From NCBI RefSeq assembly GCF_000009705.1, contig NC_003272.1, forward strand, positions 5,970,001-6,002,000: a stretch of DNA of 32,000 nt. The letters run 5' to 3'. A model generated the notes under the pieces. The model did not search any database. It was not told where the DNA came from and saw only the letters and a list, made by a program, of their open reading frames with translations. Both the position numbers and the translations under genes were made by a program. This DNA is from Nostoc sp. PCC 7120 = FACHB-418 (GTDB lineage: Bacteria > Cyanobacteriota > Cyanobacteriia > Cyanobacteriales > Nostocaceae). Positions 6,127 through 26,584 of the stretch are shown piece after piece. Numbering within the stretch: position 1 is the stretch's first letter; every line of letters starts with the position of its first letter.

Positions 6127-7017
6127 CTATTTCCGATTTTCTCCTCGTAATCGAGGATTGACAAATTCATTTAACCCCTCTCCTAGTAGTGATAACCCTA
6201 CTACCATAAATGTCATTGCTAAACCGGGAAATAGTGTAGTCCACCAAATCCCAGTTGGTAATGCTTCTAGAGCTTGTTTTAAATCAAGTCCCCATTCTGG
6301 TACTTCTTCCGGTAATCCTAGCCCTAAAAAACCCAAACCGCCTAGTACCAAAATTGCATCGGCGGCGTTAAGGGTAAAAAGTACGGGTACGCTTTGAATG
6401 ACGTTGAAAAACAGATATCGAGAAAGCACAATCCAAGTAGAAGCCCCCATTGCTTGAGCTGCTTCGATGAATACTTCAGTTTTGACGCTGACGGTGTGGT
6501 TACGCACAACGCGGTAGTATTGGGGAATGTATGCGATACTAATAGCGATCGCTGCATTTAAGATTCCTCTGCCTACTACAAACGCCAGTGTTACCGACAA
6601 TAGCAGTCCTGGTAAGGTGTAGATACTGTCCATGAGAAACAGTAATGCCTTATCTAACCTACCGCCAAGGTAGCCACTCAGCATTCCCAATGGCACGCCA
6701 ACTATCATACTCAGCGCCGTGGCTAAAATTACCACTTGCAACGCTGCTTGTGCGCCAAATAATGTCCGAGAGAAAACATCATGTCCTAAAAGAGTCGTGC
6801 CGAACCAATGTTTGGCTGATGGTGCTTCTTGAGGTGTGTTAGCCAGAAACTCTCTGGGGTTTTGTAGCCATCCCCAACTTTGGAATACAGGCGCGAAGAA
6901 TGCCAAGAAGATGAAAAATAGAGTGATAGCTAACCCAACCAGCATTAATTTTTGGGAAAGGTTGGGCTTTTTGACAAAAGATCCCCATTTTGGCAGTATA
7001 CGTTTAGTGATGGTCAT
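6127..7017 (-). CDS. ABC transporter permease, oligopeptide/dipeptide (OppC/DppC) type
   Basis: A multi-TM protein with an N-terminal anchor helix and a BPD-transporter EAA-like region (IEAAQAMGASTWIVLSRYLFFNV). Confidence 0.85.
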   Translation of the reverse strand: MTITKRILPKWGSFVKKPNLSQKLMLVGLAITLFFIFLAFFAPVFQSWGWLQNPREFLANTPQEAPSAKHWFGTTLLGHDVFSRTLFGAQAALQVVILATALSMIVGVPLGMLSGYLGGRLDKALLFLMDSIYTLPGLLLSVTLAFVVGRGILNAAIAISIAYIPQYYRVVRNHTVSVKTEVFIEAAQAMGASTWIVLSRYLFFNVIQSVPVLFTLNAADAILVLGGLGFLGLGLPEEVPEWGLDLKQALEALPTGIWWTTLFPGLAMTFMVVGLSLLGEGLNEFVNPRLRGENRK

Positions 7018-7127
7018 GAGCGATCGCCTGCATAGCGCAAGATACGCTGACCATTTTACATATCAATGTGAAGATTGGGGATTAGTGTATATTTATATTG
7101 TACTCGAAGCTCTCATGAGGGCTGTCA

Positions 7128-11662: not shown

Positions 11663-13153
11663 GTGAGGTCTACCGTGGCTGAACCTCCAGTATTAGATAA
11701 AATTATCAAAAATGTGCGGGTAGTTCGTCCCCATAATGATGCTGTTGAACTACTTGACATAGGCATTAAGGATGGGAAATTTGCTCAGATTGCTCCTAAT
11801 ATTACTCCAGACACAGGTCAAGAAATTTTTGATGCCAAAAACTTGTTAGGCTTTCCTGGGGTTGTAGATGCCCATATGCACATCGGTATCTATCAACCCC
11901 TCGATAAAGATGCGGTAACAGAAAGCAAAGCAGCCGCAATGGGAGGAGTAACAACCAGTCTCAACTATATTCGTACAGGACAGTATTATCTAAATAAAGG
12001 TGGTTCCTACCGAGATTTTTTTCCCGAAGTTTTGGCATTATCAGCAGGTAATTTTTTTGTAGATTATAGCTATCACGTTGCACCTATCGCTAGTCAGCAT
12101 ATCGACGAAATACCCTTACTTTTCGAGGAACATGGGGTAACTTCCTTTAAAATATTCATGTTTTATGGTGGTTATGGTTTGCATGGTTTATCAGACCAGC
12201 AAAACCTATTTTTGATGATAAATAAAGAGGAACGCTACGACTTTGCTCATTTTGAATTTATCATGCGTGGTGTAACTCGCTTGATGGCAGAATATCCAGA
12301 AGCGCGAGATTATATCAGCTTGAGTTTGCATTGCGAAGTTGCAGAAATTCTCAATGCTTATACCAAAATAGTAGAAAATGATTCTAGCCTAAGTGGACTG
12401 CACGCCTATAGTGCAGCACGTCCTCCCCATTCCGAAGGGTTAGCAATTTCCATCGCTGCTTATTTGGCACACGAAACTAACTGTGCAAACATCAATTTAT
12501 TACATTTGAGTTCACGTAAAGCAATGGAAGCAGCTTTGATTATGCAAACTGCTTTCCCTCATATCAACTTTCGGCGAGAAGTTACGGTTGGGCATTTATT
12601 ATTAGATGTTGATACACCCAATGGTACTTGGGCAAAGGTCAACCCGCCTATTCGTCCCCGCGCCGATGTGGAATATCTATGGCAAGCTGTACTTAATCAT
12701 CAAGTAGATTGGATAGTGAGTGACCATGCTTGCTGTTCTGCGGAACAAAAACGCAGTGCGAAAGACCCGAATAATATTTGGTTAGCTAAGTCTGGTTTTG
12801 GTGGGACGGAATATTTGCTTTCGGGTGTGGTGAGTGAAGGTAGCAAACGGGGAATGTCTTATAATCACATGGCTAAGTTGCTGTCTTGGAACCCATCGCG
12901 GCGTTTTGGATTGTTAACAAAGGGGGATATTGCTATTGGTTACGATGCTGATTTGGTGTTAGTAGACCCAAATGAAAGCTTTGTTGTACGTGCGGCTGAG
13001 TCGGAGTCACAACAGGGTTACACGCCTTTTGAGGGGATGGAGTTAACGGGACGGGTAAAGAGTACGTTTTTGCGGGGAAGTTTGATTTATCACAATGGAC
13101 AAGTTTTAGGTTCGCCGAATGGGCGTTATGTGCGGAGGAGTTTGGGGGGATAA
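11663..13153 (+). CDS. Cyclic amidohydrolase (dihydropyrimidinase/hydantoinase/allantoinase family)
   Basis: Has GVVDAHMHIG as the metal-binding HxH. Also has SFKIFMFY..., a VSDHACC region and the typical C-terminal barrel (DADLVLVDP...G.V..TFLRG). It starts at a GTG and the exact start is uncertain. Confidence 0.8.
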   Translation: MRSTVAEPPVLDKIIKNVRVVRPHNDAVELLDIGIKDGKFAQIAPNITPDTGQEIFDAKNLLGFPGVVDAHMHIGIYQPLDKDAVTESKAAAMGGVTTSLNYIRTGQYYLNKGGSYRDFFPEVLALSAGNFFVDYSYHVAPIASQHIDEIPLLFEEHGVTSFKIFMFYGGYGLHGLSDQQNLFLMINKEERYDFAHFEFIMRGVTRLMAEYPEARDYISLSLHCEVAEILNAYTKIVENDSSLSGLHAYSAARPPHSEGLAISIAAYLAHETNCANINLLHLSSRKAMEAALIMQTAFPHINFRREVTVGHLLLDVDTPNGTWAKVNPPIRPRADVEYLWQAVLNHQVDWIVSDHACCSAEQKRSAKDPNNIWLAKSGFGGTEYLLSGVVSEGSKRGMSYNHMAKLLSWNPSRRFGLLTKGDIAIGYDADLVLVDPNESFVVRAAESESQQGYTPFEGMELTGRVKSTFLRGSLIYHNGQVLGSPNGRYVRRSLGG

Positions 13154-13231
13154 GTTTCATGCAGAGGCACAGTTCGCTCTTAGCGTTTCCGCAGGGTGGC
13201 GCAGAGAGTTTTAAGGGGAGTTGGGTTGAGA

Positions 13232-14194
13232 TTAATTTCCATTTGCGTAAGATAAAACTGTACTTAATTTTGATAAGTCTCTGTCAACTCTGACAAAAAA
13301 TAAACCGCCATCATCTGATATGTGTCGGGGAAGAGTACTAAAACTGGGACAATACCAACAATGATTTTTTAAGAAGCGGTATTTTCCTACATCACAATAC
13401 CCAGCTAGACAATAACCTTCCTCATTGTATGCTTGAATCATTTGCTGCTGACCATCATAATGAGGTAAGATGGCAAGTAACCATACTCCACCGCCGTTAG
13501 CATCTTTTCTTAAATACTTCTTTTTTGCTACTTCAAATTGCACTGTATCTGTTTTCCCCCAGGGCAGCAATTTACTATCTAATACTGGGATAAATTCGTT
13601 TAATTTTGCTTCTGGATGATTATCTTGTAGATTTCTATAATTAGCTGCGCCGTCTTCCATCCAGAGAATTTCTACTTCTTCATCGCCTAAAACTTGCCAT
13701 TCACCTAATTTGACTCCGGCGGGAATAAAAGAATAGCAATGTTTAGTAAGTTGCCATTCACCGATTTTAATTTTACCTTTGAGGACAAAAAGCTCTAAAT
13801 CTGCTGTAAATATGCCTGATGGGGCTTGAAATTGTGTTGGTAAAATAACTTTTGATGTGGAAGCACCGCAATCGTGCCAAGTTAATAGTCTACGACTTCC
13901 AGCTACTACATTATTTGGCATTCCAGGTATTTGCCAATTCTGTTCTTCTGGGACTTTATTTGTGTCAAAGAATTGGTATTGACGAGGTAAATATTCTGGA
14001 GAAATGGCGGTACGTCTTCCTGATAAATTCATGCGTCCTCTACCATCTCCACCCCAATCTTCTTTAACACAAGGTATATTTAAAAGGTCTTCACTAGCCG
14101 ACTTAGATTGATTTTCCATATATTTTGATAGTGTAGAACTAAGTTTTTGTCTGTGCTTCATGTTGAGAAATAGATTATTCCATAACAGAGGCAC
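13232..14194 (-). CDS. Hypothetical protein, possibly cupin-fold
   Basis: A long ORF with beta-rich repeats (FVLKGKIKIGEWQL...IPAGVKLGEWQV). The start is uncertain, with ATGs at 14161 and 14119 also possible. The family call is tentative. Confidence 0.4.
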   Translation of the reverse strand: MPLLWNNLFLNMKHRQKLSSTLSKYMENQSKSASEDLLNIPCVKEDWGGDGRGRMNLSGRRTAISPEYLPRQYQFFDTNKVPEEQNWQIPGMPNNVVAGSRRLLTWHDCGASTSKVILPTQFQAPSGIFTADLELFVLKGKIKIGEWQLTKHCYSFIPAGVKLGEWQVLGDEEVEILWMEDGAANYRNLQDNHPEAKLNEFIPVLDSKLLPWGKTDTVQFEVAKKKYLRKDANGGGVWLLAILPHYDGQQQMIQAYNEEGYCLAGYCDVGKYRFLKNHCWYCPSFSTLPRHISDDGGLFFVRVDRDLSKLSTVLSYANGN

Positions 14195-14214
14195 AGAAAA
14201 GAGAAGATTTTTAA

Positions 14215-15603
14215 TTAGGTCAACCTACGTTTAATTTCTTCAGCTAAATCTGCTAAGGCGACTTCTACCTGTTCGCCTGATTGTAAATCTTTGAGGGATG
14301 ATTTTTGTGCTGCGGCTTCATCAGCACCGATGATGACACAAAATCTAATACCTTGTTTATCGGCTGCTTGAAATTGTTTACCTAACTGGCGTTTTTCAAA
14401 GTTTGTAATTACATTCAGCCCTGCTTGCCGTAACTGTTGCGATACTTTTAGATAAGTTGGCATTAGTTCATCCTGCATATTTACTACCACTACCTGGGCT
14501 GGTGTTGGTGGTAAAGTGTTAAGAATCCCTGCTTTCAGTAAGCGACTAATTAAGCGAGTTAAGCCGATAGAAATACCCACACCGGGCATTTTTTCACCGA
14601 TAAATGTACCAACTAATTCTTCGTATCTGCCACCTGAACAGATACTACCTAAAGCTTCATGGCCGATGAGAGTGGTTTCATAAACTGTGCCTGTATAGTA
14701 GTTTAGGCCACGAGCGATCGCCAAATCAATACAAAAGCGTTTGTCAGGCACTCCCAGGTTACGCACCCCTGTAATTACTGTTTCTAATTCGCTGACACCT
14801 AAATTAAATTGCTCTGATTCTGGCAGTGTTTGTGAAAGATGTTTGAGTTTATCTAATACATCGTCAACGCTACCATCAATTTTAACAAAATCTATAATTT
14901 TTTGTGTTTGCTCTGGGTTAATACCTTCTTTCTCTAACTCTAATTTAACTTTAGCTTCACCGATTTTTTCGAGATTATCGATAATGCTAATACAAGATTT
15001 AATTTGAGTTTCTGATATATTTAAAGATTGGAAAAATCCTGTTAAAACTTTCCGATTATTGATACGAATTACAAAATCACCAATATTAACTGCCTCAAAT
15101 ATTTCGGTGATAATTGCTGGCATTTGAGCATCATAAAGCAAACTGAGTTTTTCTCGTCCAACTACATCGATATCACACTGGCGAAATTGACGAAATCTCC
15201 CATCCTTAGCCCGTTCCCCGCGAAAAACCACGTCCATTTGATAACGAGCAAAAGGGAAAGTTAAATCATTTAAATGACGAGCAATATAAGCGGCTAAAGG
15301 CACAGTTTGGTCAAATTTTAAAGCTCTGGCTTCTGAACCCGTGTCTCCTGATTTATCTTTTTCTGCTTGGCGATTTGGTGGGAGAATTGGCTCAAGACCA
15401 TAAATAATATTGTCCCCTTGATTACCTTTGGCTTGTAGTACTTCCAAGCGTTCAACTGCGGGAGTTTCAATAGGTGTAAATCCATAGCTTTCATAAACTC
15501 TACGGATGGTATCTAGTAAATATAATTCTAAGCGCTTTTCGCTGGGCAGAAATTCGGGAAAGCCGCTAGGAGTTGAGAAGTTAATTTTGTCGTTTTTTGC
15601 CAT
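14215..15603 (-). CDS. hisS: Histidine--tRNA ligase
   Basis: Class II aaRS motifs are present (FRGERAKDGRFRQFRQCD, GGRYEEL) together with a C-terminal anticodon-binding domain. Confidence 0.95.
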   Translation of the reverse strand: MAKNDKINFSTPSGFPEFLPSEKRLELYLLDTIRRVYESYGFTPIETPAVERLEVLQAKGNQGDNIIYGLEPILPPNRQAEKDKSGDTGSEARALKFDQTVPLAAYIARHLNDLTFPFARYQMDVVFRGERAKDGRFRQFRQCDIDVVGREKLSLLYDAQMPAIITEIFEAVNIGDFVIRINNRKVLTGFFQSLNISETQIKSCISIIDNLEKIGEAKVKLELEKEGINPEQTQKIIDFVKIDGSVDDVLDKLKHLSQTLPESEQFNLGVSELETVITGVRNLGVPDKRFCIDLAIARGLNYYTGTVYETTLIGHEALGSICSGGRYEELVGTFIGEKMPGVGISIGLTRLISRLLKAGILNTLPPTPAQVVVVNMQDELMPTYLKVSQQLRQAGLNVITNFEKRQLGKQFQAADKQGIRFCVIIGADEAAAQKSSLKDLQSGEQVEVALADLAEEIKRRLT

Positions 15604-15727
15604 GCGTCTATTTTTGTGAAATTTAAACTTGATAGGGGCGCAAAAGTTTGCACCCCTACCATTTTATTTTTTCAGAAAGTTGTATTCCAATAGATAAAAG
15701 CATAACTTTCTGAAATATGGGGAATTA

Positions 15728-16171
15728 TTATTTTAGCCGTTCTTCTTGAATCAGAGTACGTTGATATATTTGATCATTTTTAAACCAGTGCCAAGTTCTA
15801 GCACGATGGTTATTATCAGGGCTGATTTGAATCATTTCATACAAATACATTCCTGGGGCTGTCTTATAGGAAAACCACAGGATAACCGTAGAGTCATCTA
15901 TTTCCCAAGCTTTACCTTGAATGCGATCGCTATCAAACCACAGTATCTTATCTTGATATGTCCCTGGAAAATTATGCACTTCTTCTTTTCCATCAGCCCA
16001 AGTATAGCGATTCACTTGGTAGTAGGGATAGGGGCCATCTTCGGGAAGTTGGCAACTTAAGTGCGATTGATGGTGGTCGAGGATTTTCCCTGAAGTATCA
16101 ATTAATGTATATGTACCCGTCCATTCACCTGCATGGCGGGCAAGTACGGGCATTTCTTCGCGGATGGACAT
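15728..16171 (-). CDS. Hypothetical protein (beta-barrel/DUF3598-like suspected)
   Basis: A 147-aa ORF with an ATG start. The GEWTGTYT... pattern is present. The family call is from memory only. Confidence 0.45.
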   Translation of the reverse strand: MSIREEMPVLARHAGEWTGTYTLIDTSGKILDHHQSHLSCQLPEDGPYPYYQVNRYTWADGKEEVHNFPGTYQDKILWFDSDRIQGKAWEIDDSTVILWFSYKTAPGMYLYEMIQISPDNNHRARTWHWFKNDQIYQRTLIQEERLK

Positions 16172-16361
16172 GGTTTGGGAGTAGGGGGGTATGGTTGTTT
16201 AACTTTTACATGAATCGGATAACTGTTCGACTTTGCAGCCTACCAAGCTATCCGACTCGGTTTGATATTCGGAGATTGTCATCAACCTCACTGGATTAAA
16301 CCTGGACTCTTATTTGGTACTCCCGATAAATTCCCATTTACCAGTTCTGACACAAAGAGTA

Positions 16362-16478
16362 CTGCCCCGCACAACCACAACCCGAAAACCTACGTTGTTG
16401 TTCCTGTTGTCACGCGCGTTCCTGTTGCGATTCGCCGAACGGCAATTCCTGGGATTGTTGTTCCACGAACCACCGCGC
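16362..16478 (-). repeat. DGR template repeat (TR)
   Basis: A non-coding copy of the 3' end of the 18219-19316 ORF, lying directly after the RT stop. In the target frame it reads [41 protein letters not shown] (AAC/AAT-rich). The last 23 nt (cgggttgtggttgtgcggggcag) are identical to the VR. Confidence 0.8.
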
Positions 16479-16505
16479 AGCAGTCGGTGTCGCCTAACCC
16501 ACTTT

Positions 16506-17726
16506 TTAAATTAACATGGCTAAGTCAAAAATTGAACTACTAAATATTCTCTGGCGCAATTGCCATGTGTCGCCGTGCTTTAAGTGGGCAACCCAACTTT
16601 GTGTTGATTGGGTTAAATGTTGAGCATCAATTTTACCTTCATCATAGTCTCGAAGCATTTGTCGTAATCTTTTTCTTCCTAAACGCAGATTATCACTGCG
16701 TACACGAATCTGGTTTGGTAAAATGCGAAACCCAACAAAATTCGCTCCATGTTTCGTTTCAAATAATTGGCTTTTTATTGGATGGATTTTTAGTCTTAAA
16801 CTCGTAAGATATTCTTCTATTATGACTCTAGCAGTTTCTAAAAATGCTTTGTCATCTGAAAATAAAGCAAAATCATCAACATAGCGAATATATTTAAATG
16901 CTTGAAGTTGTTCTTTGACAAAATGGTCAAAATTATTTAGGTAGACATTAGCAAAAAACTGACTCGTCAGATTGCCAATTGGTAAACCACATCTTCTTTC
17001 TAAAGGTGCTAACAGATTATCACCCGGAAAGTAGTTAATAACTGGTTCTTGGAAATTACTGTTATCAATAATTGTGTTAATTAGCCAGAGTGTATCAGGG
17101 CATTTTATTTTACGATATATAAGGTGTTTTAAAATTTTATGGTCAATACTGGGGAAATATTTACGAATATCAGCTTGGAAGACATAATGGCTAGAACGAG
17201 AAAATTGTGTAAAGCGACGCAAAGCACGATGAGAACCAAAACCCACCCGATTGGCGTAGGAGTCACTAATAAATGTGCGTTCAAATATGGGAACAATTAT
17301 GTTATAGAGGGCATGATGCACAACTCTATCACGATAGGGAGCAGCCGAAATCATACGCGGCTTGGGTTCATAAATTTGAAATGTTTTATATATTCCTGGC
17401 AAGTATGTTTTGCTTTGTAATTCTTCTTGTAGTTGAAATAATTCTGACTCTAAATTGTAATTAAACTCTAAAATATTTGGCTCTTCAGTTCATTTTATGG
17501 AACAGAATAATAAATAAAACCCAAAGATAGCCTGTATTCATTGCTGTGACTGGGTTTTAAGTTTTTGAGCCTTTCTATAAAACTGTGATTTTAATGCTCC
17601 ACCATAAAACCAACGCAAGAGCCAAATATTTTCTCGAAAGCGTTTACCTCGCTGTGCTTTCTTTGCTGCTAATAATAAGTTATCAAATGTTATAATTTCA
17701 CTCCAAAGATTGCCGTGTCTTTTCAT
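16506..17726 (-). pseudogene. DGR reverse transcriptase, interrupted by a MITE
   Basis: The N-terminal fragment is 17726-17538 ([34 protein letters not shown]...). The C-terminal fragment is 17471-16506 ([55 protein letters not shown]...[16 protein letters not shown]...[11 protein letters not shown]). Removing 153 nt restores one 355-codon ORF. Confidence 0.85.
17478..17624. mobile_element. Miniature inverted-repeat element (~147 bp) inserted in the RT gene
   Basis: The terminal inverted repeats are tggctcttcagttcatttta and taaaaccaacgcaagagcca. It is flanked by a direct AATATT at 17472-17477 and 17625-17630. It has no coding capacity and places in-frame stops in the RT. Confidence 0.7.
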
Positions 17727-17777
17727 CTATAGGACTCATATTTGATTTTTGAACAGATACGTAGTGGCGTGTCATTC

Positions 17778-18122
17778 TTATACATCTCTATTTTTTTGTT
17801 GTTTTATCCAGCCACCTAAATCCATGCCAATCTCATTTAACAGCTTTTGGGCATACTCATAACGTTCTGTTTTGATTAAGTTAAAATCTAGGAGTAGGCG
17901 AGTTTGATAACGTAAGATATCTAACTTACTATTTAAGGACTCTAAATAAATTAATTTCTGTTTAGCGTACCGTGCTAGGATTATAGCATCTAGTAAATTG
18001 TATAATTCTGTAATAATCCGATCGCCTAGTAATAACTTATGATCTCTGGGGAGGCGATTTAAAATTGGTACGTACCACTTGATTAAATCCTATGTTTTTT
18101 GTATTATAAGTAAATCACTCAT
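17778..18122 (-). pseudogene. avd: DGR accessory variability determinant (avd) with an in-frame amber codon
   Basis: The hand translation is MSDLLIIQKT*DLIKWYVPILNRLPRDHKLLLGDRIITELYNLLDAIILARYAKQKLIYLESLNSKLDILRYQTRLLLDFNLIKTERYEYAQKLLNEIGMDLGGWIKQQKNRDV. The TAG is at 18090-18092. The gene sits between the target and the RT as in canonical DGRs. Confidence 0.75.
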
Positions 18123-18218
18123 CCAAGAAATCTCAAAAAATTTGAGCGCGCAGAGCGCGAAACCTTAAGAATGGTAAAGAAAAAAGTGCAGAGTGCTAAA
18201 GGGCAAGAGAGTAAAGTG

Positions 18219-19316
18219 CTAAGAAAGCCTGCCCCGCACAACCACAACCCGACAACCCACGCGCTCGTTCCTGTCGTCGCGCGTGTTACTGAGGCGACTC
18301 AACGAACGGCAACCCCTGGGATAGTAGTTCCACGAACCACCACGCAGCAGACGTCGCTGATTATCATTATTAATTAGCCATGCACTACCATCAGTTGGTG
18401 CATTATTATAATTTTCCTGCCACTCATCCTGACACCATTCCCATATATTACCACACATATCAAATAAACCAAAGGGGTTAGCAGGAAATTCTCCCACATT
18501 GGTTGTTTGTCCTCGATATTCACCCCTGGGAGAAGAACCATAGGTGTGATTTCCGTCATAATTCGCCAACTCAGTTGTAATCGTTGCGCCACAATAAAAC
18601 GGTGTAGTCGTTCCCCCGCGACAAGCATATTCCCATTCGGCTTCACTGGGTAAGCGATATATCTGACCAGTCTTTTTAGATAGTCTGGTGCAAAATTCAA
18701 CCGCATCATCCCAGGAAATACGCTCAACGGGACGATTAGCACCTTTAAAGCGAGATGGGTCAGATTTTAAATCAATATTTACTTTATCAAAAGCGGCAAC
18801 GGCTGCCCATTGAGCTTGGGTTACGGGAAATTTCCCCATGAAAAAGGGTTGAATGGTGACGTTGTGCTGTGGACTTTCAGAATCATCTCGTCCTTCTTCA
18901 TTGTCTGGCGAACCCATGAGGAATTTACCGCCGGGAATGGACACCATCTCTAGCGTTACACCATTACCCAAGTCTTCTGCAAAAAATTCTGCACTTCCCT
19001 GACTGCGCTCAATAATTTTTCCTTGAGCGTCCACATTCACAGTTTCAAACTCAAATTTCTTGGCTTTAAGGGGTTCTTCAGATACAGGCGGTTTCTGTTT
19101 ACCAAGAATCCGTTCTTCTATAGGTGCAACATCTTCATCTCGCAGACTTAAGATATTTTGCAAGCGTTTGAGAGCCTTGCGCCTTGCTTGGGAAAGAGGA
19201 TATTGTTTTATCTTAGACAACTCTTGCTCATAAAGTTGCAGTTTTTCTTGGCGTTTTCTATGAGGTTCGAGAACTTCAAATTCAATTAAATTAGTATCAT
19301 CAATAGATAAATTCAA
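18219..19316 (-). CDS. DGR target protein, FGE-sulfatase / C-type-lectin fold; likely the 3' part of a longer caspase fusion ORF
   Basis: Has FGE-type motifs (HNVTIQPFFMGKFPVTQAQW, RPVERISWDDAVEFC, YRLPSEAEWEYACRGG, MCGNIWEWCQD, LRGGSW). The track start is a TTG. The same frame stays open, with no start codon, up to 19466. Confidence 0.8.
   Translation of the reverse strand: MNLSIDDTNLIEFEVLEPHRKRQEKLQLYEQELSKIKQYPLSQARRKALKRLQNILSLRDEDVAPIEERILGKQKPPVSEEPLKAKKFEFETVNVDAQGKIIERSQGSAEFFAEDLGNGVTLEMVSIPGGKFLMGSPDNEEGRDDSESPQHNVTIQPFFMGKFPVTQAQWAAVAAFDKVNIDLKSDPSRFKGANRPVERISWDDAVEFCTRLSKKTGQIYRLPSEAEWEYACRGGTTTPFYCGATITTELANYDGNHTYGSSPRGEYRGQTTNVGEFPANPFGLFDMCGNIWEWCQDEWQENYNNAPTDGSAWLINNDNQRRLLRGGSWNYYPRGCRSLSRLSNTRDDRNERVGCRVVVVRGRLS
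18229..18345 (-). repeat. DGR variable repeat (VR) at the 3' end of the target gene
   Basis: A 117-nt match to 16362-16478. It encodes [41 protein letters not shown]. Confidence 0.8.
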
Positions 19317-19461
19317 TATACGCCTAAATTCAAATAGATAAGGGCGGTTAGCTTCAATAATTTCTTCAATTTCTCCTTCATCACCAAAAACAATTGTCTC
19401 AAATTCCTTGCGATACTTCAGTTTGGGGTCATCCTTCGGTGATTTTGCAAGAAGAATTGGC

Positions 19462-20172
19462 TCACCTTTTTTTTAGGTAATATAATTCTGGTGTCATGTT
19501 GGGAGATTCTTCCTGCACTTTGCTTTTCGCATATTCATGCAACTCATCTACCGCAATCCAACCATCGCCATTTTTATCGGCTGCACCTTTTTCAATGCCT
19601 TCTACTAAATAATTGGTGTAAATCCCTAAGCCAAAATCATCAGACTCAAAGGCATATTGTGTAGAAGTAGAAGCCGTGAGAATCGCCCTTCCCTCACCGC
19701 CTAAATACTGTTGCAGGTTAATCTCACCACTATCCCTGGCTGTAAAACCTTTGGCAAATGCACCACTAAAACAACAATCTAAAATTACTACCTGTCGCTT
19801 AAATGTCTTGAGGCTCATCCAGCCTTGTACATCTCTAGCAGCTATAGCTGAAGCTGTCCTTAATTTTCCCTGATCTTTGCGAGTGTTACGAGTGGAAAAG
19901 TAAAAATGACCGTCTTCTACGGTGACACCATGACCAGAAAAATACAAAAGCCCCAGGTCATCTTTCTCACACTTGAAGTAAAAATCCTCGATAGCCTCGG
20001 CCATTTCTTGCCGTGAGGGATTTTCTAGGACTTTGACCGCATCAAAACCACCCATTTCAGGGTCTAGCAAAACGCGCTGCATCGCCTCAACATCCTTCAC
20101 AGCTTTTGGTAATGGTGCTAATGTCGGCTCATCATATTCACTAATCCCAATTAACAGTGCTACCTTAGCCAT
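19462..20172 (-). CDS. Caspase-like peptidase (C14, orthocaspase) with a C-terminal EF-hand
   Basis: The catalytic His is in LLYFSGHG and the catalytic Cys in VVILDCCFSGAF. The canonical EF-hand loop is DKNGDGWIAVDE (19543-19578). The ATG at 20172 (MAKVALLIGISEY) is preferred over the TTG at 20238. Confidence 0.8.
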   Translation of the reverse strand: MAKVALLIGISEYDEPTLAPLPKAVKDVEAMQRVLLDPEMGGFDAVKVLENPSRQEMAEAIEDFYFKCEKDDLGLLYFSGHGVTVEDGHFYFSTRNTRKDQGKLRTASAIAARDVQGWMSLKTFKRQVVILDCCFSGAFAKGFTARDSGEINLQQYLGGEGRAILTASTSTQYAFESDDFGLGIYTNYLVEGIEKGAADKNGDGWIAVDELHEYAKSKVQEESPNMTPELYYLKKR

Positions 20173-20575
20173 TGTTGCTGTCTTGGTTGTTTCTGGCCTG
20201 ATTAATGAGTTCCTCGGTTTTTTGTTTGATGTATTCAATATCTTCTTTGCTATTCGCTTTCCCCCTAAATTTTGCTCCTTCCTTGGTGATTTCTATGTCT
20301 AGTTCCAAATTCCTACCAATACCACGACCTAAAAAGTCAAATAAAGGCTTGATTAAAGCAGGACTGACTAGGGCTGTGAATTTTCCCGGCGAAAAACCAC
20401 CTAAAGCCTTGGAACCTGTTGGTACTTCTGTAATGGGAACTAAAGCTGCATCTTCTACCCCGTCCACTTCTCTTAACTGGGGTAGCAAATTTTGTACTTT
20501 TTCTTGCAATTCAGCATCATCTAAGCCTGGTTCATTCAAGGAAATAGTTATCTGAACCTGAGATGTTGTTTCCAT
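20165..20575 (-). CDS. Small uncharacterised protein translationally coupled to the caspase gene
   Basis: A 136-aa ORF with an ATG start. Its stop overlaps the caspase start in ATGGCTAA. No enzyme motif was found. Confidence 0.6.
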   Translation of the reverse strand: METTSQVQITISLNEPGLDDAELQEKVQNLLPQLREVDGVEDAALVPITEVPTGSKALGGFSPGKFTALVSPALIKPLFDFLGRGIGRNLELDIEITKEGAKFRGKANSKEDIEYIKQKTEELINQARNNQDSNNG

Positions 20576-20784
20576 ATAAATCGCTTAAATATAACCAGAA
20601 TATCTTTAAACGATTGTATCGGTTATTGAGGGAATTTAGTTAATATCCGAAGGTTTTGGGGAAATAATGAGTCACTGTATAGTATAACTACGAGGGCGAT
20701 CGCTCTTACTAAATATATAAGTACATTTAAGACTAGTGATTATAGGGATTTTCGCTTATGTGTAGTATGGTTTTGAGTCTTACT

Positions 20785-20807
20785 CCCCTTCCCTTGTAGG
20801 GAAGGGG
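20785..20807 (-). terminator. GC-rich hairpin ~45 nt after the aroA stop; possible terminator
   Basis: The hairpin is ccccttccc-ttgta-gggaagggg. There is no clear U-tract on either strand. Confidence 0.3.
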
Positions 20808-20850
20808 TTGGGGGTTAGGTCTGTATTAAACTCAACTGCGAACGATCATA

Positions 20851-22134
20851 TTAATCAATCATTTTAAAGAAGCGGGTAAAGTAGTCGGGGAATGTCTTGG
20901 CTGTACAACCTGGGTCTTGAATCACAATACCTGGGGTTTTTAAGCCTGTAACGGCAAAAGCCATTGCCATTCTATGGTCGTGGTAGGTTTCGATAGCGGC
21001 TGGGGTGATGGGGGTTGGTTCAATTTTCATCCCGTCGGCAAATTCTTCAACTTTCACACCTAAACGACGTAATTCGGTGACGACGGCGCGGATGCGTTCG
21101 GTTTCTTTATAGCGGATATGTTCTACATTACGGATGATAACAGGTGAACTAGCATAAGGGGCGATCGCTCCCAATGTTTGCACCAAATCCGACATATCAT
21201 TCATATCAATGTCGATACCTTGTAATTGTTCTGGCCCAATAACTTCGGTGTAATCTGCACCCTCAATTACCTGACAACCCATCTGTTCTAAAACATTCAG
21301 CCACAAAATATCACCTTGGCAAGATTGTTTAGTTAAATGGTTCACCCGCACTCGTCCACCAGTGACGGCGGCGGCGGCGAAAAAGTAAGAAGCATTCGAC
21401 GCATCGGGTTCTATAGTATAGTGTCGAGCTTGGTAACGTTGACCTGCTTTGATATGAAATTGGTTGTCGTCAGTTTGGGTGACATCCACACCAAAATCAG
21501 CCATCAGGCGACAAGTCATTTTTACATAAGATTGGGAAACCAATGTACCCTCAACCTCAATGGTTGTATCCTGTTGGGCGTAGGGCGCAATCATCAGCAA
21601 GGCGGAAAGTTGCTGACTGGTTTGGTTGGCTTTGAGGCGAAAATGTCCACCTGCAAATTGCTGACCATAAATAGTGTAGGGCATAAAACCAGAGTTGCCC
21701 TCAAAGTTAATTGTTATGCCACTGTTTTGTAGCACCGTTACCAAGTCACCCATTGGACGTTCCCGCATCCGAGGAACTCCATCTAAGCGATATTCCCCAT
21801 TACCAAGTGCTACCAACGCCGTGATAAATCTTGCTGCTGTACCCGCTAAACCCACAAACAAATCTGCTTGTTTTGCCGGGATGTCGCCGCCCTTACCTGA
21901 AACTTGGATTTGCGCCAGATGAGGATGTAGTGTGATGGGAATACCCAACTGCTCTACACATTTAGCAAAATATTCACTGTCTTCACTAAATAAGGCATTT
22001 TCTAAAGTAGAGTCGCCTTGCGCTAAAGCCGCAACAAGCAATGCCCGATTAGTGATACTTTTAGAACCCGGAATCTCTACTGTGGCATCCACAGGACGAT
22101 TCAGAGCAGGGATGGCGATGGTATCCACTTTCAA
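20851..22134 (-). CDS. aroA: 3-phosphoshikimate 1-carboxyvinyltransferase (EPSP synthase)
   Basis: Has PGSKSITNRALL, LFVGLAGTAARF and a DHRMAMAFAV... C-terminal motif. The start codon is TTG/GTG and the exact start is uncertain. Confidence 0.95.
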   Translation of the reverse strand: MKVDTIAIPALNRPVDATVEIPGSKSITNRALLVAALAQGDSTLENALFSEDSEYFAKCVEQLGIPITLHPHLAQIQVSGKGGDIPAKQADLFVGLAGTAARFITALVALGNGEYRLDGVPRMRERPMGDLVTVLQNSGITINFEGNSGFMPYTIYGQQFAGGHFRLKANQTSQQLSALLMIAPYAQQDTTIEVEGTLVSQSYVKMTCRLMADFGVDVTQTDDNQFHIKAGQRYQARHYTIEPDASNASYFFAAAAVTGGRVRVNHLTKQSCQGDILWLNVLEQMGCQVIEGADYTEVIGPEQLQGIDIDMNDMSDLVQTLGAIAPYASSPVIIRNVEHIRYKETERIRAVVTELRRLGVKVEEFADGMKIEPTPITPAAIETYHDHRMAMAFAVTGLKTPGIVIQDPGCTAKTFPDYFTRFFKMID

Positions 22135-22219
22135 CCTCTATCTGGGTGGTCAGCTACAACTTATATATGTTCCCATATCATGAAGGTTGCTGGAACAGTC
22201 ATATTTTTTGGTGTTTTTT

Positions 22220-22771
22220 TCATACACCTATAAGGCGTTCAACTCGTATTGATACATCAGGAAAGGCTAAGGGTGAAACAGTTCCTGTTGTGAGGGTTAG
22301 TTCGGTCGTATATTGCTGATTGTTGAGGTCACGAAAGACTTTTAACTGGGGACTTTTTAAGTTAACAACCCAATATTCAGTAATACCAGCCTCAGCATAG
22401 ATTTCTTTTTTATCACCCAAGTCTTTAGTTAAGGTGGCATTAGCAAATTCAATTACCCAAAAAATATCTTCTGGGTAAGGGTGATGTTTTAAGTAAGTCT
22501 CACCTAAAGGTTTGACAATAGCAACATCGGGTGCAGGTTCAGAATCGTTAGGTAAGGTAATTGGTTTAGCATCACGGATTTTTACTCGCTCACCAAGTAA
22601 TGTGCGGAGATAATCTGCGGCTTCTGTGTTGTAGTAGGCGTGAGGTTCTCGTTCTGGAGGCATAACAATCAGGTCGCCGCGCAATAATTCCAGAGGCTGG
22701 TCGTCAAAAATGCCTGCTTCTATTGCTCGGTGATAGCGTTCTATTGTCCATTTATAGGTAGTTACGGTCAT
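22220..22771 (-). CDS. Uma2-family (DUF820) PD-(D/E)xK endonuclease
   Basis: ELLRGDLIVMPPEREPH...PDVAIV...VIEFANATL..D...K..YA.AGI.EYWVV is typical of cyanobacterial Uma2 proteins. Confidence 0.8.
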   Translation of the reverse strand: MTVTTYKWTIERYHRAIEAGIFDDQPLELLRGDLIVMPPEREPHAYYNTEAADYLRTLLGERVKIRDAKPITLPNDSEPAPDVAIVKPLGETYLKHHPYPEDIFWVIEFANATLTKDLGDKKEIYAEAGITEYWVVNLKSPQLKVFRDLNNQQYTTELTLTTGTVSPLAFPDVSIRVERLIGV

Positions 22772-23002
22772 AACACTTGATTTAGCTTTGGTTGTACCGT
22801 AAACACAAGAAGTTTAGTTTGATTTTAACCTTTGGGGCAAGTGTACGATAATCATAATTCTGAGGCAGGCGATGACCTACAGTCGTTGGAACGCCATTGC
22901 TCATCAGATGTTTTAGGTAAATTTGTTTACGTCCTCAGGCAACAATATTTTTTGCAATAATTGAGATGTGTCGTGCTACTAGACATTTCACCCTGAAAAG
23001 TT

Positions 23003-23698
23003 ATGATATCTGCTGAGAAAACCTCTCAACTTTTGGTAATTCCCCCATTAGAAAATGGCGATAGGCTCACCCGTTATGAATTTGAGCGCAGATATTATGC
23101 TATGCCTAATTTGAAAAAAGCAGAATTGATTGAAGGAATTGTTTACGTGGCATCACCGTTAAGAATCAAAAGTCATGGCGAACCCCATGCTTATATTATG
23201 ACTTGGTTGGGTGTTTACAAAGCAGCAACACCGGGCGTAGGTTTAGCCGACAATACTACAGTCATCATTGATGCCGATAATGAACCCCAACCAGATGCTT
23301 TACTCAGAATAGAACAAGGAGGGCGATCGCGCATTAATCAAGATGATTATTTAGAAGGTGCGCCAGAATTAATTGTAGAAATCGCTGCTTCTACTGCTTC
23401 CTATGATTTACATGAAAAATTAAAAGTGTATCGGCGTAATCAAGTCCAAGAGTATTTAGTTTGGCGAGTTTATGATAATCAATTTGATTGGTTTAAGTTA
23501 CAAGCAGGTGAGTATATACAGCTTGAAGTAAATACAGATAATATATTGCGTTCACAAACATTTCCGGGGTTGTGGTTAGCGAAGTCTGCTTTATTATCAG
23601 GCGACTTAGCTACAGTATTAGCTGTTTTGCAGCAGGGATTATCTACACCAGAACATCAAGACTTCAAAAAGTCTCAAGGGAAACTTTCTTTCTCTTAA
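23003..23698 (+). CDS. Uma2-family (DUF820) PD-(D/E)xK endonuclease
   Basis: Reads AELIEGIVYVASPLRIKSHGEPH...PDALLRI...PELIVEIAASTASYDLHEKLKVYRRNQVQEYLVW. Confidence 0.8.
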   Translation: MISAEKTSQLLVIPPLENGDRLTRYEFERRYYAMPNLKKAELIEGIVYVASPLRIKSHGEPHAYIMTWLGVYKAATPGVGLADNTTVIIDADNEPQPDALLRIEQGGRSRINQDDYLEGAPELIVEIAASTASYDLHEKLKVYRRNQVQEYLVWRVYDNQFDWFKLQAGEYIQLEVNTDNILRSQTFPGLWLAKSALLSGDLATVLAVLQQGLSTPEHQDFKKSQGKLSFS

Positions 23699-23830
23699 CA
23701 GAGACGCTACGCGAACAGAACTTTTCACTGCGTTTAAAAACATTAGTTCTGTATTGGAAACAGAACATTAATTTGGGAAGCATAGCCGTAGCCAGATAAA
23801 TTACGACATCAAGCCAAGATAAAACCCTCA

Positions 23831-23885
23831 CAACCGTCAACAGTCAACCGTCAACAGTCAACCGTCAACAGTCAACCGTCAACAG
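23831..23885. repeat. STRR array (CAACCGT CAACAGT)x4
   Basis: Four perfect 14-nt units lie in the convergent intergenic region. Confidence 0.9.
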
Positions 23886-23944
23886 CTATAAAACCAACCA
23901 AAGCTTTACCTCTATTCCCCATACCATATTTATTCAGTAAATTG

Positions 23945-25366
23945 TCATTCCCCCTTATCAAACCACCAAGGGTCACTAGCAGAGTTGGTTTTAATCAAAA
24001 ATGCTTGTTTTCTCAAAAACCGCTTCAACCCTGATGCACCCATACGCGAACCACCAAGACCAGAAAAGTTAAAGGCGTTTTTTTCTCCTTCGTGCATCAC
24101 AGCAGTAAGAGCGGCATCATTAATACTGATAGCACCTGCATTTAATTGTCGAGCAACTTTTAAAGCTTCATCTTCTGAACCTGCAAACACCGCCGCACTT
24201 AATCCATAAATTGTGTCGTTGGCTAAATATACGGCTTCTTCCACGTCGGGAAAAGGCATAACCGGCATAATTGGGCCAAAAGTTTCTTCAGTCATCACCT
24301 TCATGGAGTGATTAACATTTGTCATGACTGTAGGACGACACCACCAACCGCCACCTAATTCTTCGACTTTACCGCCGCAGTGAATGACAGCCCCTTTCTC
24401 AACTGCATCTAAAATATGATCGTTAACAATTCCGGCTTGTCTTTCAGCAATGATGGGGCCGATCGCTCCATCTTCTACTAAAGGGTAAGCTAGTTGTAGA
24501 CGATGGGCTTTAGCTATTAATTGATGATAAAACTCTTCAAATCTAGATTCAGCTACGTAAATTCTTTCAATAGATAAACAAGATTGTCCTGTATTCACAA
24601 CCGCACCCCACAAAATAGCTGAGGTAGCTAAATCTAAATTGGCTGACTCTAAAACGATCGCCGGATCTTTGCCTCCCAATTCCAAGTAAGCTGGAATAAA
24701 GCGTCTAGCTGCGGTTTCTGCGACTTCTCTTCCTGTAGCTACACTACCCGTAAAACATACCAAATCGACATAATTAATTAAATTTGCCCCAGTTTCTCCG
24801 CCTCCCTCCACAAAAGTTAAGATATCGCGCAACTCAGGAACTGTATTTAAGGCCATCAACAGAGGCGCAACAAATCGAGGAGCTATTTCACTGGGTTTGA
24901 CAACCACCGCACAACCCGCCAGCAACGCCGGAATGGTATCAATCATCGACAGCAACAAAGGAAAATTCCACGGACTAATTACGCCGACGAGGGGGTAAGG
25001 AACTAATGATTGTTGTAAAGCGATAAAGGGAATGCTGGTATTTTTGGCAGACTCTTGTAGTAATTCTGGCGCTAAACCACACCAGCGATCGATACTAGCG
25101 ATAAAAGAATCGATTTCTAATACAGTTATAGATAATCTACCCGTATCATTTACCAAAGCTTCTGTTAGTTGTTCACGTCGGGAAAGTATAGCTTGCTTCC
25201 ATTGCTGTAAAGCTGTGATTCTTCCTTCCACACCCAATTCTTGCCAACGAGATTGCGCCCGTCTCGCCCGATTACATTGCTGTGCTAGCAACCTCGGCGG
25301 CGGCGGTATAATCACATAATCAAATTTTCCCGTACGTGGATTACGAACTTCGATTGTTTTGGTCAT
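23945..25366 (-). CDS. NAD(P)-dependent aldehyde dehydrogenase
   Basis: Has ISPWNFPLLL, the catalytic Glu in ELGGKDPAIV and the catalytic Cys in GQSCLSIERIYV. Confidence 0.9.
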   Translation of the reverse strand: MTKTIEVRNPRTGKFDYVIIPPPPRLLAQQCNRARRAQSRWQELGVEGRITALQQWKQAILSRREQLTEALVNDTGRLSITVLEIDSFIASIDRWCGLAPELLQESAKNTSIPFIALQQSLVPYPLVGVISPWNFPLLLSMIDTIPALLAGCAVVVKPSEIAPRFVAPLLMALNTVPELRDILTFVEGGGETGANLINYVDLVCFTGSVATGREVAETAARRFIPAYLELGGKDPAIVLESANLDLATSAILWGAVVNTGQSCLSIERIYVAESRFEEFYHQLIAKAHRLQLAYPLVEDGAIGPIIAERQAGIVNDHILDAVEKGAVIHCGGKVEELGGGWWCRPTVMTNVNHSMKVMTEETFGPIMPVMPFPDVEEAVYLANDTIYGLSAAVFAGSEDEALKVARQLNAGAISINDAALTAVMHEGEKNAFNFSGLGGSRMGASGLKRFLRKQAFLIKTNSASDPWWFDKGE

Positions 25367-25382
25367 TTGTTAGTTGTCAGTT

Positions 25383-25418
25383 GTCAGAGACGCGATTAAT
25401 CGAGTCTGTACAGTTGTC
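25383..25418. repeat. 36-nt dispersed repeat with a palindromic core (copy 1)
   Basis: gtcagagacgcgattaatcgagtctgtacagttgtc equals the reverse complement of 26629-26664 except at 2 positions. Confidence 0.85.
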
Positions 25419-25444
25419 AATAATCAATAGTCATTGGTTAATAG

Positions 25445-25467
25445 AAAAAACGTTGTATGCAACGTTT
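25445..25467 (-). terminator. Rho-independent terminator-like hairpin after the amidase-like gene
   Basis: The minus strand reads AAACGTTG-cata-CAACGTTT followed by TTTTC. It lies ~75 nt after the stop at 25541. Confidence 0.5.
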
Positions 25468-25479
25468 GTACTTAGTTTT

Positions 25480-25540
25480 CCCCAGTCCCTAATCCCCAAT
25501 CCCCAGTCCCCAATCCCCAGTCCCCAATCCCCAATCCCCA
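25480..25540. repeat. STRR array (CCCCAGT/CCCCAAT heptamers, ~8.5 units)
   Basis: The units are ccccagt ccctaat ccccaat ccccagt ccccaat ccccagt ccccaat ccccaat cccca. The array abuts the stop codon at 25541. Confidence 0.9.
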
Positions 25541-26584
25541 TCAAATAATCCCCAACCGAGTTAAACGTTCAATAGTTTCCTGCTGTGTTTGTATAAAATG
25601 TTTGCGCTCTATTTCTTTATTCAGCATAGTGTTTGCTGGGTAAAATTTAGCTTGACTGTAGCTTTGAGCATACATTTCAAACCTTTGGCGCGATAATAAA
25701 TTATTTAAACCTGGTCTGGTGCGATCGCGTCTTAATGCAGCTAAGTCTATTTCTGCAAAAGCAGCCATACTTTCACCTGGGCCTGTTTCCGCTAAGATTA
25801 TCCCACGATGGTCAATGATTTTGGAGCCGCCATCAACGGAACCAATGGGAATCGCACTATTCGCTAAACCTGCGCTATTGGCTGAAACTACATAAGCCAT
25901 ATTCTCAACAGCACGAGTAATTTTTGCTGCATCTTTGGGAGTGAGGTTCTTGCTATACACCTCAGATGTGGAATGGAGAAAAATTTCTGCCCCCCGCATT
26001 GCCAAACATCTAGCTACTTCCGGGTATAAAATTTCCTCTGATGCCAAAGCTGCTAAATTACCAATGGCAGTTTTAGCCACAGGAAACACACCTTCTAAGC
26101 CATAACAGTCAAGGTATTTATCCCAAACATCATGAGGTGTGGGAGCAAATAAAGAATTTAACCGCCGATACCGTAAAACAACTGAACCAGAAGGGTCAAT
26201 GACAAAACAAGTTTGGAAGTATAATCCGGGGAAATTGGGGTCAAGTTCGTAAGCGTTACCTGCAAGAAATATTTGCTGTTTTTGAGCAATCATTCCCAGT
26301 GCTTCATATTCTGCACCGTTAATTTCCAAACAGGCTTTATCTGCCCATACTTGCAAAGGTTCTCCCATCGGAAAGCCTGTGAGAAAATATTCTGGTAACA
26401 CAATTAAGCGACAGTCAAACCCAATAAAAGCAATACTGGCAGCAATTTGTTGTGCCAAGCGGTTAATTGTATTGTGCATCATTAACCCAGCTTCTTGGCG
26501 ATCGCTTGCTTGATTCACTGCATGACAAGTAACTTGCAGCGCCAAAGCCCGAAATGAGTTGAGATTCCCAGGATTATCTACCAT
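25541..26584 (-). CDS. Nitrilase-superfamily protein, aliphatic-amidase (AmiE)-like, with a non-canonical catalytic triad
   Basis: IVLPEYFLTG holds the Glu. YRRLNSLF sits where AmiE has YRKIIPW. LAALASEEILYPEVARCLAMRGAEI sits where AmiE has [23 protein letters not shown]. The ATG at 26584 is preferred, because upstream track codons run into repeat DNA. Confidence 0.75.
   Translation of the reverse strand: MVDNPGNLNSFRALALQVTCHAVNQASDRQEAGLMMHNTINRLAQQIAASIAFIGFDCRLIVLPEYFLTGFPMGEPLQVWADKACLEINGAEYEALGMIAQKQQIFLAGNAYELDPNFPGLYFQTCFVIDPSGSVVLRYRRLNSLFAPTPHDVWDKYLDCYGLEGVFPVAKTAIGNLAALASEEILYPEVARCLAMRGAEIFLHSTSEVYSKNLTPKDAAKITRAVENMAYVVSANSAGLANSAIPIGSVDGGSKIIDHRGIILAETGPGESMAAFAEIDLAALRRDRTRPGLNNLLSRQRFEMYAQSYSQAKFYPANTMLNKEIERKHFIQTQQETIERLTRLGII

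Follow-up and report, generated by a model that had tools for sequence, protein, structure and literature searches.

The stretch of DNA analysed here, which we call the window, comprises 32,000 nucleotides (nt) of the Nostoc sp. PCC 7120 chromosome (NC_003272.1, positions 5,970,001 to 6,002,000), and its proteins are exact matches to BAB76711-BAB76721 of PCC 7120 (BA000019), hisS and aroA included. Its minus strand carries two adjacent genes, all5017 and all5016, which meet at a run of eight adenines (A8) and which, judged by their sequences, are the halves of one gene for a 650-amino-acid (aa) protein made up of an EACC1-associated caspase, a linker, and a formylglycine-generating enzyme (FGE)/C-type-lectin domain. 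The same gene is the target of a diversity-generating retroelement (DGR), whose variable repeat (VR) lies at its 3′ end. The features at the break are the following open reading frames (ORFs) and tract.

19462 to 20172, minus strand: 5′ half of the broken gene, all5017 (exact match to BAB76716.1), 236 aa, ending in ...LKKR and the stop; Peptidase_C14 at residues 3-223
19467 to 19474, minus strand: A8 homopolymer (T8 on the plus strand), the site of the 1-nt insertion
18219 to 19472, minus strand: +1-frame 3′ half of the broken gene, with a conserved linker (GEPILLAKSPKDDPKLKYRKE...) followed by coiled linker sequence and the FGE-sulfatase/C-type-lectin domain that bears the VR

The 236-aa half, which owes its ...LKKR C-terminus to the frameshift, retains the whole caspase domain, including the His-Cys dyad (YFSGHG, DCCFSG), together with a calcium (Ca)-loop-like motif. 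It scores 157.4 bits against a cut-off of 140 with the NCBIfam profile NF047832.1 ("caspase, EACC1-associated type"), a profile that the fused protein passes as well. An earlier note on this DNA, made from the letters alone, had placed an EF-hand after the caspase. That label held in part: a DxNxDGxIxxxE-type loop (DKNGDGWIAVDE) occupies residues 199-210, and D199, D203, G204, I206, D209, and E210 are invariant among orthologues, but Pfam found no EF-hand domain at E ≤ 0.01. The 3′ half is annotated either as all5016 (BAB76715.1, 273 aa from an ATG) or as WP_323790848.1 (365 aa from the TTG at 19316). Database entries name the two products separately, with WP_010999143.1 listed as a "caspase family protein" and WP_323790848.1 as a "formylglycine-generating enzyme family protein." We found no paper that mentions all5016 or all5017; all5014, which encodes the major part of the DGR reverse transcriptase (RT), alone appears (PMC7517822). 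The view of all5017/all5016 as one EACC1-type caspase-sensor gene, intact in sister cultures, seems to be absent from the papers searched.

Reading frames at the A8 junction

On the minus strand, the caspase ORF ends in TAT TAC CTA AAA AAA AGG TGA, with the TGA at 19464-19462; both this ending and the plus-strand T8 lie where the earlier note had put them. The intact allele has seven adenines (A7) at this site and reads CTA AAA AAA GGT GAG, i.e., L K K G E. Relative to the caspase, the sensor half is in the +1 frame, which has a TAA at 19475-19473, continues with KKGEPILLAKSPKDDPKLKYRKEFETIVFGDEGEIEEIIEANRPYLFEFRRI, and stays open until the stop at 18219. Because of this TAA, any change of frame would be confined to the three codons AAA AAA AGG. 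The earliest ATG, GTG, or TTG in the +1 frame is the TTG at 19316, leaving 52 open codons without a start, in agreement with the claim that the target frame is start-less upstream of that TTG. Deleting one A from A8 computationally gives a 650-aa protein that starts at the ATG at 20172 and carries Peptidase_C14 at residues 3-223 and FGE-sulfatase at 408-643. The prediction that loss of one A would join the frames into a protein of about 650 aa was thus borne out, and the conceptual fusion is identical to a real, deposited protein (P0141). The trans-frame peptide predicted over the junction is ...ELYYLKKGEPILLAK.

The tract is the only A/T run of at least 8 in the 32-kb AT-rich window, a number near a rough composition-based expectation. 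The A8 run itself is unremarkable; the signal beyond chance is that the start-less stretch is conserved as protein. The earlier note had also supposed, without checking, that AGG is a rare codon. It is the rarest Arg codon in the long ORFs of the window, yet with 26 of 365 Arg codons (7%, or 3.7 per 1,000 codons), it is moderately rare and not extreme. No tRNA genes occur within the window. We also considered whether translation of the sensor half might restart at the in-frame ATT just 3′ of AAGGTGA, and we set this aside as unsupported speculation.

These features bear on the possibility of programmed recoding, in which ribosomal +1 frameshifting at A-AAA-AGG-UGA, or else transcriptional slippage programmed by A8, would yield the short caspase and the full-length caspase-sensor protein in a set ratio. 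The site offers a slippery P-site AAA, on which tRNA-Lys would re-pair perfectly one base forward (AAA-A), followed by the rarest Arg codon and then a stop, and the +1 frame is open only from 19472 on, which makes the shift window three codons long. Bacterial RNA polymerase is known to slip to some extent on A/T runs of 8 or more; the runs known for transcriptional slippage typically have 9 or more A/T, or are A6G or A7-8 in insertion sequence (IS) elements. Against recoding, we found no Shine-Dalgarno-like stimulator in the sequence directly upstream of the shift site, and the whole motif is explained by CTA AAA AAA GGT GAG plus one A.

Orthologues and clonal assemblies

Among the matches listed, all 119 non-identical relatives are single proteins of ~610-900 aa with both Pfam domains, most of them named "caspase, EACC1-associated type" or "SUMF1/EgtB/PvdO family," which is as expected if the PCC 7120 locus is a broken fusion. 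An alignment of 41 sequences revealed that G236, A242, D248, P249, and Y253 are invariant and that I239, L241, K243, S244, P245, K246, D247, K252, R254, and E256 are at least 90% conserved. The codons for all these positions lie directly 3′ of the frameshift, inside the start-less stretch, and the suggestion that this stretch is genuine linker protein is thereby upheld. When genome contigs were searched for related loci with the 41-sequence alignment, the matches listed were mostly one-domain paralogues, and the useful full-length orthologues among them were L021, L022, and L036. Four orthologues could be compared at the DNA level; they have AAC AAG GGT, AAG GAC GGT, AAG GAT GGT, and GAG GAA GGT at the homologous codons, with neither a homopolymer nor an in-frame stop at the homologous site.

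Because the relatives are fused, the residues 3′ of the shift are conserved, and the DNA-level orthologues are uninterrupted, we take the fused gene to be the ancestral state, the A7 tract to be peculiar to the PCC 7120 clone, and A8 to be a derived 1-nt insertion. The same comparisons tell against the +1 recoding site that the earlier note had raised, since the orthologues are single ORFs with neither the A-run nor another shift site and the sister clones lack the extra A. For transcriptional slippage, a conserved run at the frame junction is likewise missing: the orthologues have no run, and the sisters carry A7 within a single frame.

The 650-aa protein is deposited verbatim as BAY70622.1, MBD2172587.1 (Anabaena sp. 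FACHB-709), HBW31853.1, and MBD2264441.1 and occurs in 75 indexed blocks of the assembly collection. Carriers of the intact A7 allele include NIES-23, FACHB-709, GCA_014697155.1, and many further assemblies; we found no literature on the strain identity of NIES-23 versus PCC 7120. The correspondence between alleles is very close. Specifically, a single A is the sole difference between GCA_014697155.1 (L002) and window positions 12219-26172, over 13,954 aligned positions, and between JGI 3300030446 (L004) and window positions 12219-25500, over 13,282 aligned positions. The tract is A7 in loci L001-L011 and A8 in loci L012-L020. Exact-pattern scans for the junction with A7 to A9 gave 0 hits in two contig collections, one of genomes and one of metagenomes, that evidently contain neither the source genome nor the JGI contig, and so they speak for neither allele. 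One A7 copy, in JGI 3300014768 (L001), has two close substitutions at window positions 19102 and 19104 that change Gly to Ala in the linker (ERILGKQ to ERILAKQ); this sole coding variant among the clonal copies is either a real minor variant or an assembly error.

The A8 tract with its 236-aa product was assembled de novo in the Logan runs SRR34939169-210, with one contig common to 18 samples, and A8 also occurs in JGI 3300004930; the A8 contigs are otherwise 100% identical to the window. Given this independent assembly in the Logan runs and JGI 3300004930, A8 is real and not a sequencing error of the reference. Products of A5, A6, or A9 alleles were absent from the ~15 billion proteins searched. 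In a resequencing study, five wild-type subcultures of Nostoc 7120 showed 123 differences from BA000019, ~20 of which are 1-nt homopolymer changes, several private to one subculture, and none of the 123 falls between all4985 and all5074 (PMC10811720 Table S2). Since no difference was reported at the locus, the strain of that laboratory should have A8, like the reference. Single-nucleotide homopolymer indels are thus a routine change in Nostoc 7120 on laboratory timescales (PMC10811720).

The surrounding DGR cassette

On the minus strand, the cassette runs in the order 136-aa ORF, caspase-linker-FGE/C-type-lectin target with the VR, avd, RT, and template repeat (TR). Besides the two gene halves, it contains the following features, among them a 145-nt insertion resembling a miniature inverted-repeat transposable element (MITE).

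20165 to 20575, minus strand: 136-aa upstream ORF (BAB76717.1), with an 8-nt overlap between its stop and the caspase ATG in all loci
18229 to 18353, minus strand: VR at the 3′ end of the target gene, a 125-nt direct repeat 83% identical to the TR
17778 to 18083, minus strand: avd (NF033474, 118.8 bits against a cut-off of 80; bAvd match)
17538 to 17726, minus strand: N-terminal fragment of the RT, a 62-aa ORF (BAB76714.1) that runs into the inserted element
17479 to 17623, minus strand: MITE-like 145-nt insertion in the RT, with terminal inverted repeats GGCTCTTGCGTTGGTTTTATGG ... CCATAAAATGAACTGAAGAGCC
16506 to 17470, minus strand: C-terminal major part of the RT, all5014 (RVT_1, 1.3e-22)
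16362 to 16486, minus strand: TR downstream of the RT, paired with the VR

The hallmarks of a DGR are present in the form of a TR/VR pair with adenine bias, Avd, an RT, and a target with the C-type-lectin fold; an intact RT and accessory gene are not. The RT gene, which extends overall from 17726 to 16506, is interrupted by the MITE-like element, which is flanked by an 8-bp direct repeat (target-site duplication, AAATATTT) and whose computational removal brings ...RENILEFNY... back in frame. At this element, the contigs L003 and L005 pass into unrelated DNA, and L007 and L008 stop inside it, which suggests that it is present in multiple copies in the genome. The avd frame opens after a TAG at 18092-18090, aligns only to positions 11-104 of the Avd profile, and has no canonical ATG, GTG, or TTG start after the TAG; it may be 5′-truncated or dependent on a non-canonical start. 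The VR and TR differ at 21 positions, 13 at TR adenines and 8 at non-adenine positions, and the A7 and A8 contigs examined all share one VR sequence. The non-adenine mismatches indicate drift since the last mutagenic homing and are consistent with long inactivity. To judge from these lesions, the diversification machinery is defunct in all copies examined. According to previous work, all5014 is one of the two DGR RTs of PCC 7120 (PMC7517822).

A 41-kb A7 contig of a near-identical strain, with ~99.4% identity (L101; JGI 3300014786, Ga0169450_100173) differs in having the VR joined directly to the TR at 7003-7124, with avd and RT missing and a 664-aa target protein with a different tail. This arrangement reflects either a true deletion by recombination between VR and TR or a collapse during assembly; the contig has other frame disruptions too, e.g., a split hisS.

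The 136-aa ORF occupies the position of the EACC1 effector in EACC1-caspase two-gene systems, and contigs with caspase-FGE orthologues also encode members of its family. In such systems, the caspase has many alternative C-terminal domains (Kaur et al. 2020, PMC7159879); PCC 7120 accessions are not in the supplement of that study. A 2025 preprint on a Ktedonobacter system describes a caspase that cleaves EACC1 when the fused sensor is triggered, releasing a pore-forming fragment, and EACC1-associated proteases fused to diverse domains, DGRs included (PMC12642450). From its gene position and the family assignment of the caspase, the 136-aa ORF is probably an EACC1-type effector. By inference from these systems, the intact 650-aa protein would be a sensor-protease, with the DGR-diversified lectin as the ligand sensor and the 136-aa protein as the death effector.

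Relatives of the 136-aa ORF are widely named "sugar ABC transporter permease," which looks like a propagated mis-annotation. Near the locus, between aroA and an aldehyde dehydrogenase gene, lie two divergent Uma2-family endonuclease genes (22220-22771 on the minus strand and 23003-23698 on the plus strand).

Origin of the split and known parallels

We consider it highly likely that replication slippage added one A to A7 in the reference lineage, i.e., that the split is an ordinary lineage-specific frameshift. The A7 run (CTA AAA AAA GGT) gained one A, the usual outcome of slippage at a homopolymer. The caspase frame now ends two codons later (AGG TGA), and the linker and sensor, which lack a start codon, are left in the +1 frame, whereas A7 and the intact gene persist in sister cultures of the clone. 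In the A8 lineage, the product would be no more than a 236-aa caspase lacking the sensor, with the sensor half made in small amounts or not at all. With the protease uncoupled from the ligand-binding domain, a probable sensor-protease-pore-former suicide/defence module, consisting of the upstream small protein, the caspase, and the C-type-lectin sensor, would be inactivated, and the reference lineage is probably null for this caspase-sensor module. Such a gene loss would fit a decaying locus, with its MITE-split RT, an avd gene with no canonical start, and non-adenine VR/TR differences; the frameshift in the target is one more lesion, in one lineage only, in a locus under relaxed selection. 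The default reading of the earlier note, simple pseudogenisation of a fused gene, gains strong support from the otherwise identical A7 allele, the fused relatives, and the conserved residues 3′ of the break. A low level of full-length product, arising by RNA-polymerase or ribosome slippage on A8, is possible as an accidental leak, not a designed signal, and homopolymer slippage in general makes accidental rescue on A8 plausible.

Several points weigh against this interpretation. The direction from A7 to A8 follows from outgroup logic and not from a dated culture pedigree, and that the sensor half is not made is read from sequence alone. The missing variant call in the resequenced subcultures (PMC10811720) is an indirect sign of A8 in that strain, and the Logan runs with A8 may be DNA or RNA libraries. 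For the module as a whole, the 136-aa ORF gave no Pfam or NCBIfam match even at E ≤ 10. Finally, PCC 7120 is polyploid, and A7 and A8 chromosome copies may coexist within one culture.

A phase-variable contingency switch, in which reversible toggling between A7 (ON) and A8 (OFF) would control a costly suicide/defence module, strikes us as quite unlikely. In other bacteria, defence genes are among the typical targets of phase variation; classical contingency tracts tend to be longer than A7. In favour of a switch are the two tract lengths among cultures otherwise identical over 14 kb and the single-base homopolymer changes between subcultures in one laboratory (PMC10811720 Table S2). Against it, A7 and A8 are the sole lengths seen, and the orthologues do not share the tract. 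Most A8 contigs trace to a single run series, with the reference and one JGI sample as the other sources, a pattern that fits a single event inherited by one laboratory lineage; moreover, the associated DGR is already defunct, which points to decay rather than regulation. The idea of homopolymer toggling in the earlier note is thus weakly supported: both lengths do exist within one clone, but A5, A6, and A9 products are absent from the proteins searched, and nothing observed points to reversion.

A low-frequency or leaky version of such a switch we regard as very unlikely. Here, slippage, whether in the DNA of the many chromosome copies that a filament holds or by RNA polymerase or ribosomes on A8, would let a minority of cells or transcripts keep the full caspase-sensor protein and so tune the cost of the suicide module; the coexistence of two lengths in clonal cultures is the one observation that speaks for it.

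It is still less credible that the 2001 reference gained A8 through a sequencing or assembly error and that the real organism has A7 and an intact gene. Many assemblies of evidently the same clone do carry A7, and homopolymer lengths often differ between BA000019 and resequenced wild types (PMC10811720), but the de novo A8 contigs described above speak against an error, as does the breseq-style comparison of five wild-type subcultures with BA000019, which shows no change at the locus (PMC10811720). Least likely of all is programmed recoding, given a split that none of the 119 relatives shares, the absence of the A-run in the four DNA-level orthologues, and clonal sisters that differ solely by the missing extra A.

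Under ordinary lineage-specific frameshifting, the value of the finding is practical and modest: the reference annotation of PCC 7120 shows two proteins where there is one 650-aa caspase-sensor gene. PCC 7120, a standard model organism, was put forward in earlier work as a model for the DGR variable proteins of cyanobacteria (PMC7517822), and the A-run genotype matters for work in this strain on orthocaspases, EACC1-type defence, or the all5014 DGR. Because laboratory lineages differ, genotyping of the A-run is advisable. For translational recoding, the A8 site brings nothing new.

Programmed +1 sites include CUU-UGA-C in prfB and CUU-AGG-C in Ty1. The junction resembles them in a P-site codon able to re-pair in +1, a slowly decoded AGG, and a stop; it differs in that the site and the split are unconserved, no Shine-Dalgarno-like stimulator lies upstream, and the origin is a recent 1-nt change.

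Cyanobacterial DGR variable proteins with orthocaspase N-termini have been described previously (Vallota-Eastman et al. 2020, PMC7517822). The PCC 7120 locus shares with these DGRs the FGE/C-type-lectin VR target, the order of avd, RT, and TR, and mismatches that are mostly at TR adenines (PMC7517822), but this copy is decayed, with its RT split by a MITE, avd start-less, and 8 of 21 mismatches at non-adenine positions. With EACC1-caspase systems, the locus shares a small 5′ gene overlapping the start of an NF047832 caspase gene and a variable C-terminal domain serving as sensor or effector, DGRs being among the fused domains (PMC12642450); here, however, the frameshift separates the caspase from the C-terminal domain, and the 5′ protein is without a profile match.

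The closest parallel is a well-known type of event, the substrain-specific homopolymer frameshift (PMC10811720 Table S2; Synechocystis PCC 6803, PMC3276265). The all5017/all5016 site lies outside the 123 differences, here it is the reference that holds the broken allele, and database entries name the products of its halves separately. In both settings, a 1-nt change in a mononucleotide run splits an ORF, and the change is found in one laboratory lineage and is absent from clonal sisters.

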